64,000 nt of DNA from Eledone cirrhosa (lineage: Eukaryota): positions 43,214,001 through 43,278,000 of the forward strand of contig OZ024753.1 in NCBI GenBank assembly GCA_964016885.1, in the 5' to 3' direction. A program made the translations under genes and the position numbers. How positions within the stretch are numbered: the first letter of the stretch is position 1; each line of letters opens with the position of its first letter. A model generated the notes under the pieces. It did not search any database. It saw only the letters and a list, made by a program, of their open reading frames with translations, and was not told the origin of the DNA. Below, in pieces: positions 5,977-29,411 of this stretch.

Positions 5977-6059
5977 ATATATATGTATATATGAATTTGT
6001 ACATTTATTAATATATAGATATATAGGCACATGTATATATATATATATGTATGCATCTA

Positions 6060-9000
6060 TGTACACATGTGTATATGTAATGTGTGTACATATGTGTATA
6101 TGTAATGTGTGTACATATGTGTATATGTAATGTGTGTACATATGTGTATATGTAATAGTGTATGTACATATGTGTATATGTAATGTATGTACATATGTGT
6201 ATATGTAATGTGTGTACATATGTGTATATGTAATGTGTGTACATATGTGTATATGTAATGTGTGTACATATGTGTATATGTAATAGTGTATGTACATATG
6301 TGTATATGTAATAGTGTATGTACATATGTGTATATGTAATGTATGTACATATGTGTATATGTAATAGTGTATGTACATATGTGTATATGTAATAGTGTAT
6401 GTACATATGTGTATATGTAATAGTGTATGTACATATGTGTATATGTAATAGTGTATGTACATATGTGTATATGTAATGTATGTACATATGTGTATATGTA
6501 ATGTGTGTACATATGTGTATATGTAATAGTGTATGTACATATGTGTATATGTAATAGTGTATGTACATATGTGTATATGTAATAGTGTATGTACATATGT
6601 GTATATGTAATAGTGTATGTACATATGTGTATATGTAATAGTGTATGTACATATGTGTATATGTAATGTATGTACATATGTGTATATGTAATGTGTGTAC
6701 ATATGTGTATATGTAATAGTGTATGTACATATGTGTATATGTAATAGTGTATGTACATATGTGTATATGTAATGTATGTACATATGTGTATATGTAATGT
6801 GTGTACATATGTGTATATGTAATAGTGTATGTACATATGTGTATATGTAATAGTGTATGTACATATGTGTATATGTAATAGTGTATGTACATATGTGTAT
6901 ATGTAATAGTGTATGTACATATGTGTATATGTAATAGTGTATGTACATATGTGTATATGTAATAGTGTATGTACATATGTGTATATGTAATAGTGTATGT
7001 ACATATGTGTATATGTAATAGTGTGTGTACATATGTGTATATGTAATAGTGTATGTACATGTGTATATGTAATAGTGTATGTACATATGTGTATATGTAA
7101 TAGTGTATGTACATGTGTATATGTAATAGTGTATGTACATGTGTATATGTAATAGTGTATGTACATATGTGTATATGTAATAGTGTATGTACATATGTGT
7201 ATATGGAATAATGTATGTACATATGTGTATATGTAATAGTGTATGTACATATGTGTATATGTAATAGTGTGTGTACATATGTGTATATGTAATAGTGTAT
7301 GTACATATGTGTATATGTAATAGTGTATGTACATATGTGTATATGTAATAATGTATGTACATATGTGTATATGTAATAGTGTATGTACATATGTGTATAT
7401 GTAATAGTGTGTGTACATATGTGTATATGTAATAGTGTATGTACATATGTGTATATGTAATAATGTATGTACATATGTGTATATGTAATAGTGTATGTAC
7501 ATGTGTATATGTAATAGTGTGTGTACATATGTGTATATGTAATAGTGTATGTACATATGTGTATATGTAATAGTGTATGTACATGTGTATATGTAATAGT
7601 GTATGTACATATGTGTATATGTAATAGTGTATGTACATATGTGTATATGTAATAGTGTATGTACATATGTGTATATGTAATAGTGTATGTACATGTGTAT
7701 ATGTAATAGTGTATGTACATATGTGTATATGTAATAGTGTATGTACATATGTGTATATGTAATAGTGTATGTACATATGTGTATATGTAATAGTGTGTGT
7801 ACATATGTGTATATGTAATAGTGTATGTACATGTGTATATGTAATAGTGTATGTACATATGTGTATATGTAATAGTGTATGTACATGTGTATATGTAATA
7901 GTGTATGTACATATGTGTATATGTAATAGTGTATGTACATATGTGTATATGTAATAATGTATGTACATATGTGTATATGTAATAGTGTATGTACATATGT
8001 GTATATGTAATAGTGTATGTACATATGTGTATATGTAATAGTGTATGTACATATGTGTATATGTAATAGTGTATGTACATATGTGTATATGTAATAGTGT
8101 ATGTACATATGTGTATATGTAATAGTGTATGTACATATGTGTATATGTAATAATGTGTGTACATATGTGTATATGTAATAATGTATGTACATATGTGTAT
8201 ATGTAATGTGTGTACATATGTGTATATGTAATAGTGTATGTACATATGTGTATATGTAATGTGTGTACATATGTGTATATGTAATAGTGTATGTACATAT
8301 GTGTATATGTAATGTGTGTACATATGTGTATATGTAATGTGTGTACATATGTGTATATGTAATGTATGTACATATGTGTATATGTAATGTATGTACATAT
8401 GTGTATATGTAATGTGTGTACATATGTGTATATGTAATGTGTGTACATATGTGTATATGTAATAGTGTATGTACATATGTGTATATGTAATGTGTGTACA
8501 TATGTGTATATGTAATGTGTGTACATATGTGTATATGTAATGTATGTACATATGTGTATATGTAATGTATGTACATATGTGTATATGTAATGTGTGTACA
8601 TATGTGTATATGTAATGTGTGTACATATGTGTATATGTAATGTATGTACATATGTGTATATGTAATGTATGTACATATGTGTATATGTAATGTGTGTACA
8701 TATGTGTATATGTAATGTGTGTACATATGTGTATATGTAATAGTGTATGTACATATGTGTATATGTAATGTGTGTACATATGTGTATATGTAATGTGTGT
8801 ACATATGTGTATATGTAATAGTGTATGTACATATGTGTATATGTAATGTGTGTACATATGTGTATATGTAATGTATGTACATATGTGTATATGTAATGTA
8901 TGTACATATGTGTATATGTAATGTGTGTACATATGTGTATATGTAATGTGTGTACATATGTGTATATGTAATAGTGTATGTACATATGTGTATATGTAAT

Positions 9001-12000
9001 GTGTGTACATATGTGTATATGTAATGTGTGTACATATGTGTATATGTAATAGTGTATGTACATATGTGTATATGTAATGTGTGTACATATGTGTATATGT
9101 AATGTATGTACATATGTGTATATGTAATGTATGTACATATGTGTATATGTAATGTGTGTACATATGTGTATATGTAATGTGTGTACATATGTGTATATGT
9201 AATAGTGTATGTACATATGTGTATATGTAATGTGTGTACATATGTGTATATGTAATGTGTGTACATATGTGTATATGTAATGTATGTACATATGTGTATA
9301 TGTAATGTATGTACATATGTGTATATGTAATGTGTGTACATATGTGTATATGTAATGTGTGTACATATGTGTATATGTAATAGTGTATGTACATATGTGT
9401 ATATGTAATGTGTGTACATATGTGTATATGTAATGTGTGTACATATGTGTATATGTAATAGTGTATGTACATATGTGTATATGTAATGTGTGTACATATG
9501 TGTATATGTAATAGTGTATGTACATATGTGTATATGTAATAATGTGTACATATGTGTATATGTAATAGTGTATGTACATATGTGTATATGTAATAGTGTA
9601 TGTACATATGTGTATATGTAATAGTGTATGTACATATGTGTATATGTAATAGTGTATGTACATATGTGTATATGTAATAGTGTATGTACATATGTGTATA
9701 TGTAATAGTGTATGTACATATGTGTATATGTAATAGTGTATGTACATATGTGTATATGTAATAGTGTATGTACATATGTGTATATGTAATAGTGTATGTA
9801 CATATGTGTATATGTAATAGTGTATGTACATATGTGTATATGTAATAGTGTATGTACATATGTGTATATGTAATAGTGTATGTACATATGTGTATATGTA
9901 ATGTGTGTACATATGTGTATATGTAATGTGTGTACATATGTGTATATGTAATGTGTGTACATATGTGTATATGTAATGTGTGTACATATGTGTATATGTA
10001 ATAGTGTGTGTACATATGTGTATATGTAATAGTGTATGTACATATGTGTATATGTAATAGTGTATGTACATATGTGTATATGTAATAATGTGTGTACATA
10101 TGTGTATATGTAATGTGTGTACATATGTGTATATGTAATGTGTGTACATATGTGTATATGTAATAGTGTATGTACATATGTGTATATGTAATGTGTGTAC
10201 ATATGTGTATATGTAATGTGTGTACATATGTGTATATGTAATAGTGTATGTACATATGTGTATATGTAATGTGTGTACATATGTGTATATGTAATGTATG
10301 TACATATGTGTATATGTAATGTATGTACATATGTGTATATGTAATGTGTGTACATATGTGTATATGTAATAGTGTATGTACATATGTGTATATGTAATGT
10401 GTGTACATATGTGTATATGTAATGTATGTACATATGTGTATATGTAATGTATGTACATATGTGTATATGTAATGTGTGTACATATGTGTATATGTAATGT
10501 GTGTACATATGTGTATATGTAATAGTGTATGTACATATGTGTATATGTAATGTGTGTACATATGTGTATATGTAATGTGTGTACATATGTGTATATGTAA
10601 TGTATGTACATATGTGTATATGTAATGTATGTACATATGTGTATATGTAATGTGTGTACATATGTGTATATGTAATGTGTGTACATATGTGTATATGTAA
10701 TAGTGTATGTACATGTGTATATGTAATAATGTATGTACATGTGTATATGTAATAATGTATGTACATATGTGTATATGTAATAGTGTATGTACATATGTGT
10801 ATATGTAATAGTGTATGTACATGTGTATATGTAATAATGTATGTACATGTGTATATGTAATGTATGTACATATGTGTATATGTAATGTATGTACATATGT
10901 GTATATGTAATGTGTGTACATATGTGTATATGTAATGTGTGTACATATGTGTATATGTAATAGTGTATGTACATATGTGTATATGTAATGTGTGTACATA
11001 TGTGTATATGTAATGTGTGTACATATGTGTATATGTAATAGTGTATGTACATATGTGTATATGTAATGTGTGTACATATGTGTATATGTAATAGTGTATG
11101 TACATATGTGTATATGTAATAATGTGTACATATGTGTATATGTAATAGTGTATGTACATATGTGTATATGTAATAGTGTATGTACATATGTGTATATGTA
11201 ATAGTGTATGTACATATGTGTATATGTAATAGTGTATGTACATATGTGTATATGTAATAGTGTATGTACATGTGTATATGTAATAGTGTATGTACATATG
11301 TGTATATGTAATAGTGTATGTACATATGTGTATATGTAATAGTGTATGTACATATGTGTATATGTAATAGTGTATGTACATATGTGTATATGTAATAGTG
11401 TATGTACATATGTGTATATGTAATAGTGTATGTACATATGTGTATATGTAATAGTGTATGTACATATGTGTATATGTAATAGTGTATGTACATATGTGTA
11501 TATGTAATAGTGTATGTACATATGTGTATATGTAATAGTGTGTGTACATATGTGTATATGTAATAGTGTATGTACATATGTGTATATGTAATAGTGTATG
11601 TACATATGTGTATATGTAATAGTGTATGTACATATGTGTATATGTAATAGTGTATGTACATATGTGTATATGTAATAGTGTATGTACATATGTGTATATG
11701 TAATAGTGTATGTACATATGTGTATATGTAATAGTGTATGTACATATGTGTATATGTAATAGTGTGTGTACATATGTGTATATGTAATAGTGTGTGTACA
11801 TATGTGTATATGTAATAGTGTATGTACATATGTGTATATGTAATAATGTATGTACATATGTGTATATGTAATAGTGTATGTACATATGTGTATATGTAAT
11901 AGTGTATGTACATATGTGTATATGTAATAGTGTATGTACATATGTGTATATGTAATAGTGTATGTACATATGTGTATATGTAATAGTGTATGTACATATG

Positions 12001-13262
12001 TGTATATGTAATAATGTGTGTACATATGTGTATATGTAATAGTGTATGTACATATGTGTATATGTAATGTATGTACATATGTGTATATGTAATGTGTGTA
12101 CATATGTGTATATGTAATGTGTGTACATATGTGTATATGTAATGTGTGTACATATGTGTATATGTAATAGTGTATGTACATATGTGTATATGTAATAGTG
12201 TATGTACATATGTGTATATGTAATGTGTGTACATATGTGTATATGTAATGTGTGTACATATGTGTATATGTAATAGTGTATGTACATATGTGTATATGTA
12301 ATAGTGTATGTACATATGTGTATATGTAATAATGTGTGTACATATGTGTATATGTAATAGTGTGTGTACATATGTGTATATGTAATAATGTATGTACATA
12401 TGTGTATATGTAATGTGTTGTACATATGTGTATATGTAATAGTGTATGTACATATGTGTATATGTAATAGTGTATGTACATATGTGTATATGTAATAGTG
12501 TATGTACATATGTGTATATGTAATAATGTATGTACATATGTGTATATGTAATAGTGTATGTACATATGTGTATATGTAATAGTGTGTGTACATATGTGTA
12601 TATGTAATAGTGTATGTACATGTGTATATGTAATAGTGTATGTACATATGTGTATATGTAATAATGTATGTACATATGTGTATATGTAATAATGTATGTA
12701 CATATGTGTATATGTAATAATGTATGTACATATGTGTATATGTAATAATGTATGTACATATGTGTATATGTAATAGTGTATGTACATATGTGTATATGTA
12801 ATAGTGTATGTACATATGTGTATATGTAATAATGTATGTACATATGTGTATATGTAATAATGTATGTACATATGTGTATATGTAATAATGTATGTACATA
12901 TGTGTATATGTAATAGTGTATGTACATATGTGTATATGTAATAGTGTATGTACATATGTGTATATGTAATAGTGTATGTACATATGTGTATATGTAATAA
13001 TGTATGTACATATGTGTATATGTAATAATGTATGTACATATGTGTATATGTAATAATGTATGTACATATGTGTATATGTAATAATGTATGTACATATGTG
13101 TATATGTAATAGTGTATGTACATATGTGTATATGTAATAGTGTATGTACATATGTGTATATGTAATAGTGTATGTACATATGTGTATATGTAATGTATGT
13201 ACATATGTGTATATGTAATGTGTGTACATATGTGTATATGTAATAGTGTGTGTACATATGTA
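6060..13262. repeat. 7.2-kb satellite of 25/26/28-bp variants (gtacatatgtgtatatgtaat[ag]tgtat)
   Basis: Uninterrupted tandem array. It generates the 2400-2500 aa pseudo-ORFs on the minus strand. Confidence 0.97.
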
Positions 13263-13527
13263 TATATAAATATATATATAAATATACTTATATATTATAC
13301 ACACATAAAACACATATATACACAGATAGATATCATATATTGTATACACTTGAATATAAACTGACCCCTGTTTTATATCCGAGAAACGTGAAATTACTAA
13401 AAATCCATAACAAAGCAAAACATGGTAACTGTAGCATATGTGAAGATGAGGAAGAAACAAGCTCAATCTCTGGCTGTCTCGTCTTAAGCAAAACATTATA
13501 TTCCCAGATATGATGGAGATGGAGTTT

Positions 13528-26985: not shown

Positions 26986-27190
26986 TCATAACATATAAAC
27001 AAAGATTGCTTTCTGATGAAATTTCTTATAACTTTTTATTTTCCATTCCAATTTCTTTATTGAATTAAATTCTATGTTTGTATTGGAACGGCAATAGTTC
27101 TGTAATAACAGCAGATAATTTCCTAGAATTTATCTACAACAAGCAAAAAAGACATATAAAATATTTATATTTACATCTATATATATATAC

Positions 27191-27221
<31 letters not shown>

Positions 27222-27233
27222 CATATATATACA

Positions 27234-27285
<52 letters not shown>

Positions 27286-27336
27286 TATATACATATATGT
27301 ATATATACATATATATATATACATATATATATATAC

Positions 27337-27391
<55 letters not shown>

Positions 27392-27930
27392 TATACACAT
27401 ATATATATATATATATATATACATATATATACACATATATATATATATATATATATACATACATATATTTACATATATATATATATATATATACATATTT
27501 TTGGGATTCGAAACCGATCGGTAAAGGTAACTATAGTAGGTAAAGTCAATTTTTTAAAATTTATTTTGAAACTTTTTCATTATTTGCTAAACCTTGTTTA
27601 TATATGTTCTGGCTCGTTAATTTATTAACCTGCCATTGAACCACATTGGCATTTGGTTGGACAATACATGCGTCCCTTAGCGCCTTATGCGTGAAGGAAC
27701 ACATATCCTATTATTACTACTCTCCGCTATTGTTGAGAGACAAATTGGGTTGTTCCGACTGCTGCTAGTGATAGTTGCGGCCGGTTTGACCTACCTCCCT
27801 CTGCCTCTATCTTTACTTCGGCCCTTGAAAAAATTGATTCCACTTCATTCACTCTCATCTCAGGAACAGTTTTGGATAGCGCTAGTTCGTAATTTAAATT
27901 CAAGAATTTTATATTCTTCGAATGAAAAGA

Positions 27931-28013
27931 ACCTTCTGACGAGAATCTTTCTTTGCAACGAAGGCCGTATGGTCTCCGTTTATTTTTGGGATTCGAAACC
28001 GATCGGTAAAGGT
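27931..28013 (+). ncRNA. Type I hammerhead ribozyme, complete, with predicted cleavage after GUA at 28008
   Basis: Stem I ACCUU/AAGGU, CUGACGA (27936-27942), stem II GAAUCUU/GGGAUUC with an extended loop, GAAA (27995-27998), palindromic stem III ACCGAUCGGU. Confidence 0.85.
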
Positions 28014-28415
28014 AACTATAGTAGGTAAAGTCAATTTTTTAAAATTTATTTTGAAACTTTTTCATTATTTGCTAAACCTTGTTTATATATGTTCTGGCTC
28101 GTTAATTTATTAACCTGCCATTGAACCACATTGGCATTTGGTTGGACAATACATGCGTCCCTTAGCGCCTTATGCGTGAAGGAACACATATCCTATTATT
28201 ACTACTCTCCGCTATTGTTGAGAGACAAATTGGGTTGTTCCGACTGCTGCTAGTGATAGTTGCGGCCGGTTTGACCTACCTCCCTCTGCCTCTATCTTTA
28301 CTTCGGCCCTTGAAAAAATTGATTCCACTTCATTCACTCTCATCTCAGGAACAGTTTTGGATAGCGCTAGTTCGTAATTTAAATTCAAGAATTTTATATT
28401 CTTCGAATGAAAAGA

Positions 28416-28498
28416 ACCTTCTGACGAGAATCTTTCTTTGCAACGAAGGCCGTATGGTCTCCGTTTATTTTTGGGATTCGAAACCGATCGGTAAAGGT
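28416..28498 (+). ncRNA. Type I hammerhead ribozyme, second identical copy, with predicted cleavage after 28493
   Basis: Same sequence as 27931-28013, shifted by 485 bp. Confidence 0.85.
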
Positions 28499-28575
28499 AA
28501 CTATAGTAGGTAAAGTCAATTTTTTAAAATTTATTTTGAAACTTTTTCATTATTTGCTAAACCTTGTTTATATAT

Positions 28576-28601
28576 ATACATACATATATTTACATATGTA
28601 T

Positions 28602-28654
<53 letters not shown>

Positions 28655-29379
28655 CATACATATACTTACATATGTATGTTTATACATGTATATACATATA
28701 TATATACATACATATACTTACATATGTATATATGTGTATATATATACATAAGTATATGTATGTATATATGTGTGTGTACATATATATATGTGTGTATACA
28801 TATATGTGTATATACATATATATGTGTATATACATATATATGTGTGTATATACATATATATGTGTGTATATACATATATATGTGTGTATATACATATATA
28901 TGTGTGTATATACATATATATATATGTGTATACATATATATATATGTGTATACATATATATATATGTGTATACATATATATATATGTGTATACATATATA
29001 TATATGTGTATACATATATATATATGTGTATACATATATATATATGTGTATACATATATATGTGTATACATATATATATATGTATACATATATATATATG
29101 TTTATACATATATATATATATGTGTATACATATATATATATATATATGTGTATACATATATATATATATGTGTATACATATATATATATATATATGTGTA
29201 TACATATATATATATATATGTGTATACATATATATATATATATGTGTATACATATATATATATATATGTGTATACATATACATATATGTATATATACATA
29301 CATATACATACACGTGTATATATATATATATATATACATACATATACATATATATATATACATATATGTATATATACAC

Positions 29380-29411
<32 letters not shown>
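28576..29411. repeat. (TA)n/tgtatacata compound microsatellite
   Basis: Direct inspection. A similar tract lies at 27175-27495. Confidence 0.95.

Follow-up and report, generated by a model that had tools for sequence, protein, structure and literature searches.

Metazoan non-LTR retrozymes are described as non-coding tandem units, each with one type I hammerhead ribozyme (HHR) and a GC content under 45%, which occur as dimers to multimers alongside co-existing Penelope-like elements (PLEs); the element reported here shares all of these features. Retrozyme RNA circles have been demonstrated in coral, mussel and axolotl (Cervera and de la Pena 2020, PMC7229834), whereas the circle considered below is putative. 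The invertebrate circles in that paper measure 170–400 nt, and lengths of 51–972 bp are given for retrozyme families by Li, Clavereau and Pollet (2026, 10.64898/2026.07.22.740005). Copying of such circles into tandem cDNA by PLEs has been proposed (PMC7229834; 10.64898/2026.07.22.740005). For the entry of animal retrozymes into new loci, a PLE enzyme, a circular template and tandem cDNA are thus all on record as proposals, and a demonstration was not found in the parts of the literature covered.

PLEs provide further close comparisons. The EN+ Neptune-type elements, in the account of Craig et al. (2021, PMC8557442), share with the present family insertion into (TA)n, truncation at the 5' side, an additional inverted and 5'-truncated copy at the 5' end, a 'tail' confined to one end and, upstream of their 3' ends, a hammerhead whose stem III is palindromic. 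Here, in contrast, there is no ORF, the tail is 106–112 nt rather than 30–40 bp, both arms can reach many units, and no homologous PLE end was found among 50 GIY-YIG loci. Non-autonomous elements of Chlamys such as MRC1 differ from the present family in having 3' ends in common with their autonomous partners, and most Chlamys elements are described as lacking hammerheads (PMC8557442). The anole Poseidon PLE cuts and extends both strands of an AT-rich target in vitro and starts reverse transcription at two internal sites (Frangieh et al. 2024, PMC11167929), as appears to be the case here. Its start sites are adjacent and non-homologous to the target, with HHR cleavage dispensable in vitro, whereas the AU-rich retrozyme sites match (TA)n and are separated by ~108 nt. 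A literature search of titles and abstract openings returned no description of a cephalopod retrozyme or of two-armed retrozyme inserts. Likewise, a two-site, two-arm retrozyme footprint and an allele pedigree were not found in the literature compared; supplementary material outside that comparison, such as the life cycle drawn in PMC7229834 and the tables of families in 10.64898/2026.07.22.740005, may bear on it. Against this background, the locus described here is probably a young non-LTR retrozyme copy that was integrated by rolling-circle, target-primed reverse transcription.

The window, a 64,000-nt stretch of the Eledone cirrhosa genome assembly, carries at 27496–28575 (+) a single-arm insertion of 2.23 identical, non-coding units of 485 nt. 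TRF reported a period of 485, 2.2 copies and 100% matches over this interval, and a base-by-base self-comparison at a lag of 485 gave zero mismatches across 27496–28090, in full agreement with the identical head-to-tail units of the preliminary description. TA microsatellite lies on both sides, at 27161–27498 and at 28569–29411 (neither assigned a strand), and since both flanks are (TA)n a target-site duplication is unreadable at these inserts. A 7.2-kb satellite with a 28-nt period and strong GC skew lies at 6032–13285, and micro- and minisatellites are dense elsewhere in the window.

The hammerhead core CTGACGA occurs at 27936 and 28421, and the motif GAAA-CCGATCGG-TA at 27510, 27995 and 28480. 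Together these positions predict cuts after 27523, 28008 and 28493 and a monomer of 485 nt, and they bear out the two complete type I HHRs and the additional 3' half that had been proposed. The first complete hammerhead (27931–28013, +; predicted cut after 28008) consists of stem I, ACCTT/AAGGT (27931–27935/28009–28013), the core (27936–27942), a 52-nt stem II insert closed by GAATC/GATTC (27943–27994), GAAA (27995–27998) and the 8-nt palindrome CCGATCGG (27999–28006), followed by TA before the cut. The second spans 28416–28498 (+; predicted cut after 28493). At 27496–27528 (+) lies the 3' half of a 5'-truncated hammerhead, with a predicted cut after 27523, which would need a partner in trans. 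The predicted cut-to-cut monomer at 28009–28493 (+; GC 38%) is the putative circle, and unit position 1 denotes the first base 3' of the predicted cut. On this scale the insertion runs from position 458 at its 5' end to position 82 at its 3' end. The array begins 28 nt 5' of the first predicted cut and finishes 82 nt past the last, at TATATAT (28569–28575), so that its ends are indeed displaced from the cut sites, as had been noted.

A comparison with Rfam, suggested earlier as a check, failed to detect the motif: no hammerhead was returned at the gathering score for the whole window, nor among the 26 matches at E≤10 for 27400–28700. The hammerhead call is therefore based on motif, conservation and covariation. 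A 24-mer across the cut, in the 3' hammerhead half, has 1,206 exact matches in the 3.0-Gb assembly as against 0 for the reversed control, which places the motif beyond chance. Among ~240 unit copies, substitutions amount to 0.2–1.9% at unit positions 401–25 and to 2–7% at positions 151–400, the ribozyme and the bases just 3' of it being the most conserved part of the unit; positions 482–8 show 0 indels in ~246 crossings each. Furthermore, 12 of 14 pairs are altered on both sides among 18 motifs from three families, 88.9% of cells are paired compared with ≤55.1% for slid controls, and palindrome changes among the three families' motifs are compensated; the 18 sequences form three related groups and so represent few events, not 18.

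Fold prediction indicates that the palindrome self-pairs as a duplex. Stem III is absent from the single-strand monomer fold (z=-1.1), and stem I from the predicted circle fold. A duplex palindrome together with a monomer fold lacking stem III fits the dimer mode that has been described for PLE hammerheads (PMC6765202) and for axolotl retrozymes (PMC7229834), and on the predicted folds cleavage would probably take place in dimers paired through the palindromic stem III. The hammerhead differs from those of the retrozymes as described in these sources in its 52-nt stem II insert, its 8-nt palindrome and its being missed by Rfam.

The longest open frame of the 485-nt unit is 115 codons and has no Pfam match. 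None of 98 frames scanned, out of 110 non-repetitive open frames in the window, passed the Pfam curated cut-offs, and tblastn with six PLE proteins as queries found no match within the window. A tRNA head was looked for and none was found. The frames scanned and tblastn gave no sign of a host gene or a PLE inside the window, and an autonomous PLE was likewise rejected, as the unit has no ORF for a reverse transcriptase (RT) or GIY-YIG domain. The element has complete type I HHRs in two or more successive units, non-coding sequence of low GC content, a dispersed, multi-copy distribution and a unit length in the published range. It is, by every feature that could be tested, a member of a class already known, the non-LTR retrozymes, as the preliminary description had suggested from its tandem type I HHRs. 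That description had considered the unit unusually long, a view not upheld by the range of 51–972 bp (10.64898/2026.07.22.740005); 485 nt does exceed the 170–400 nt given for invertebrate circles (PMC7229834).

The first 100 of the 1,206 24-mer matches correspond to 46 loci (grouped by eye), which suggests a family of ~500 or more loci genome-wide. We mapped 92 loci, a sample that leans towards young copies (the window, 39 others from among the best DNA matches, 43 from the first matches on contig C1 and nine found with subfamily patterns), and the copies were ~88% to 100% identical to the window unit. The subfamily of the window, with 74 units at 16 loci, contains just 11 substitution alleles in 35.6 kb and must therefore be very recent; the family is young enough for parent and daughter alleles to be traced. 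Array length rises in the younger subfamilies (74 units at 16 loci, 56 at 23, and mostly 1–2 units at older loci), which suggests that arrays collapse with age. In the A164 subfamily (16 loci), T>C changes make up six of the 11 new substitutions and could reflect RT misincorporation opposite U; one arm of locus L034 has three of them within 123 nt. Runs X1–X4 contain the unit as contigs, their kind being unrecorded; one depth-79 contig of X2 matches the second-youngest subfamily, from which no inference is drawn as the run type is unrecorded, and X5 and X6, with one low-depth piece of the unit each, were left out.

The 3' ends of the mapped arms are fixed. Of 124 arms, 81 end at +80–84 (site A), 36 at +183–196 (site B) and seven elsewhere, so that two sites together account for 117. 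Both are AU-rich, match (TA)n and are predicted to be unpaired in the circle, and 113 of the 115 arms listed run into TA repeat (counted by eye). In the window, priming site A (unit 76–82, TATATAT; 28569–28575, +) forms the 3' end of the insertion and overlaps the right (TA)n flank by microhomology, while priming site B (unit 186–194; 28194–28202, +) is unused. Priming at the internal TATATAT, put forward from the window, is thus matched by most of the mapped arms. The 5' ends, in contrast to the 3' ends, are spread (chi-square p=0.07, 124 arms) and show no excess at the cut (three of 124 within 3 nt, p=0.27). The circularly permuted starts that had been anticipated in other copies were consequently found in part: the 5' ends vary, but the 3' ends are confined to two sites.

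Moreover, 32 of 87 inserts (first 81 loci) consist of two arms joined head to head. These pairs comprise 25 A+B, one A+A, one B+B and five with another end (p=3e-6); the 55 single pieces end at A in 44 cases, at B in nine and elsewhere in two. The window insert is of the single-arm type A, and the array it presents, correct in itself, gave no view of the roughly one third of inserts that are two-armed. The family thus combines fixed internal 3' ends and a tail with 5' truncation, an inverted 5' copy and a microsatellite target, in a genome that holds a young autonomous PLE. An assembly artefact, or a mere terminal repeat of a full-length Penelope element, is an exceedingly improbable account of this pattern. 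It is true that the locus sits in a microsatellite and that the L034 arm junction is bridged by no public contig; however, the inserts occur at many loci on many contigs, each with its own unit number, 5' end and private alleles, the 55 single pieces have no shared upstream PLE body, and the window has no PLE protein match.

Candidates for the mobilising protein are abundant in this genome, with 10,596 GIY-YIG candidates, and the loci that were fetched encode an RT with a C-terminal GIY-YIG domain. Five of six PLE proteins contain a CX4CxxC linker, a motif ascribed to Neptune and Nematis (PMC8557442), and on this motif the young PLEs of the genome would be assigned to the Neptune type. The RT+GIY-YIG families are young (96–99% identity), and the frame of L146 runs from Met for 1,025 codons without interruption. 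The PLEs end in (TA)n shortly after a hammerhead, and those at L146, L149 and L152 have inverted arms and two alternative 3' ends. The young Neptune-type PLEs therefore share the footprint of the retrozyme, namely TA targets, two 3' sites and inverted arms. With its fixed 3' ends, (TA)n targets and inverted arms matching this footprint, the retrozyme has very probably been mobilised by a PLE, which strengthens what had been surmised from the window.

Two near full-length Neptune-type PLEs were noted: L144:2270–8400, organised as pLTR-ORF-pLTR (period ~4,979 nt), its frame being broken close to the N terminus, and L146:2700–7650, in which the frame is uninterrupted and a 5' arm is inverted. Among 50 GIY-YIG loci no PLE end homologous to the unit was found, only short chance matches. 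What the L144 family shares with the unit is limited to stem I, the cut triplet and a CCGG-type palindrome, a sequence likeness that makes it a lead only as a possible helper. A helper search with the same palindrome and a shorter stem II gave three matches, all retrozyme-like. Two young PLE families (L144:2432 and 7411, −; L163:6664; L122) have hammerheads whose core pair is U3-A8 instead of C3-G8, and standard hammerhead patterns miss them.

The arms of one insert resemble each other, and the units of one array are largely uniform. For 20 of the 25 pairs that could be compared, the partner arm is at least as close as any arm elsewhere, and in nine it is strictly the closest. Among 85 insertions, we found 18 alleles that are each private to a single insertion and present in all of its copies, and 14 of the 67 multi-copy insertions have such alleles; A345T is present in 11/11 units of L040, over both arms, and private alleles are fixed in 9/9 units of L070 and 7/7 of L050. 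In arrays of at least three copies, 46 of 57 polymorphic alleles are found in one unit and 11 in more than one. Fourteen alleles are polymorphic in at least two loci, the commonest at the boundary of a T/A run (positions 32–34). Non-uniform arrays also occur: T163A is present in the first and third of the three L044 units, and L051 shows C148T in just one of its arms and T155C in two of three units. Template editing was considered and rejected, as an A-to-G excess was not seen among the private fixed alleles (4/18).

The predicted cut is crossed at least once by 111 of the 124 arms and at least twice by 64. With 5' ends not enriched there and no indels at positions 482–8, this indicates that the template was continuous across the cut; run-off at the cut, expected of a linear monomer, was not seen among the 124 arms. 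A circular template is likely.

An allele pedigree indicates the unit of inheritance. In one arm of L034, T460C ends one monomer and T61C and T98C start the next, the three mutations lying within a 123-nt stretch. The stretch with T61C and T98C has five matches genome-wide, in one L034 unit, in all three covering units of L041 and in one of L042; T460C has five matches as well, in the preceding L034 unit and in 4/4 units of L052. L041 and L042 are without T460C, and L052 is without T61C and T98C, so that the daughters of L034 carry one allele set or the other, never both. The split falls between positions 460 and 61, an 86-nt interval containing the cut, for which random phases or random unit-length circles give p about 0.034. 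In the window subfamily four alleles are fixed in an array, and three of these trace to single L034 units. As the L034 alleles split across the predicted cut, what is inherited is likely the monomer from cut to cut, copied again into tandems, and this holds for either direction of copying; the repeated copying of one monomer proposed earlier finds support in single-unit alleles that are fixed in daughter arrays. The pedigree comprises one parent and three daughters in a haploid assembly, and its direction might be the opposite one if a source locus is absent or template switching took place.

Mobilisation by a PLE from linear RNA, in which uncut read-through multimers and template jumps between cut monomers would replace a covalent circle, is a possible but distinctly less favoured reading. 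The anole PLE uses unprocessed RNA in vitro (PMC11167929), 8/9 Xenopus retrozyme dimers were uncleaved in vitro (10.64898/2026.07.22.740005), L034 is readable as a mosaic of L052 and L041 monomers, and the L044 and L051 arrays are not uniform. However, a one-unit allele cannot become 3.4 uniform units from an uncut multimer, and jumps among pooled monomers predict mixed arrays, whereas private alleles are fixed in 11/11, 9/9 and 7/7 units. The cut site, moreover, is without scars or a pile-up of 5' ends. Repeated scar-free jumps on one linear molecule are compatible with these observations.

Insertion of a monomer by a PLE followed by amplification at the DNA level, through unequal crossing-over, gene conversion or excised DNA circles, would also be expected to give uniform arrays, and Li et al. 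(2026, 10.64898/2026.07.22.740005) suggest such a route for the birth of satellites. We regard it as improbable here. Inverted arms are both multimeric and have private alleles in common (4.9+5.7 units in L040, 4.6+4.3 in L034), the longest arrays are in the youngest subfamily rather than the next (74 units at 16 loci versus 56 at 23), and the allele split lies in the cut-containing interval, with the probability given above for random DNA circles.

Rolling-circle copying of an RNA circle may be envisaged as follows. A read-through transcript of an array would be made, and such transcripts are predicted to cut themselves into 485-nt monomers via dimers of the palindromic stem III; the monomers would then be ligated, likely into circles. 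A borrowed Penelope-type RT/GIY-YIG protein would nick both strands of (TA)n, and the two target 3' ends would pair with the AU-rich sites at +82 and ~+190 of one RNA. RT on each target end would circle the template until falling off, and the two cDNAs would be joined head to head, or one of them joined to the target, as in the window. In this specific form, with a Penelope protein gripping one ribozyme-made RNA circle at two fixed sites that are ~108 nt apart, and with the two ends of the (TA)n break extended on it as rolling circles, the scheme has a little more in its favour than against it. If it is true, the L034 pedigree would be genomic proof of the cut-to-cut monomer as the replicating unit, and priming of two ends at two sites would account for two traits of Penelope elements generally, the inverted 5' copy and the tail on one side. 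The family supplies the RNA, both priming sites, the target and candidates for the helper protein, so that the model can be tested directly, and it bears on the way in which inverted and tailed insertions arise among Penelope elements.

Sister tandem families with units of ~483 nt (L143; 2,211 candidates) and 542 nt (L073) are ~42–55% identical to the unit by rough alignment. The ~483-nt family (L143:960–1480, −; L174–L203) is older; it shares the 8-nt palindrome but not stem I, and has inverted arms and two fixed 3' ends separated by 106 nt. The L073-type family (542 nt in L073), a third hammerhead tandem family (L073:3786–4540, L046:9000–10000, L048:2800–4200 and L099:7000–8000), has the palindrome CTAATTAG, TA targets and inverted arms. 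At L174:38–658, three hammerheads with a 4-nt CGCG palindrome are spaced 310 nt apart and adjoin a sister-family insert. Many other hammerhead-ended elements, with palindromic stems III of 4–8 nt, occur in neighbouring TA runs in the flanks of L031–L214, and most of these stop ~36–200 nt after their own cut.
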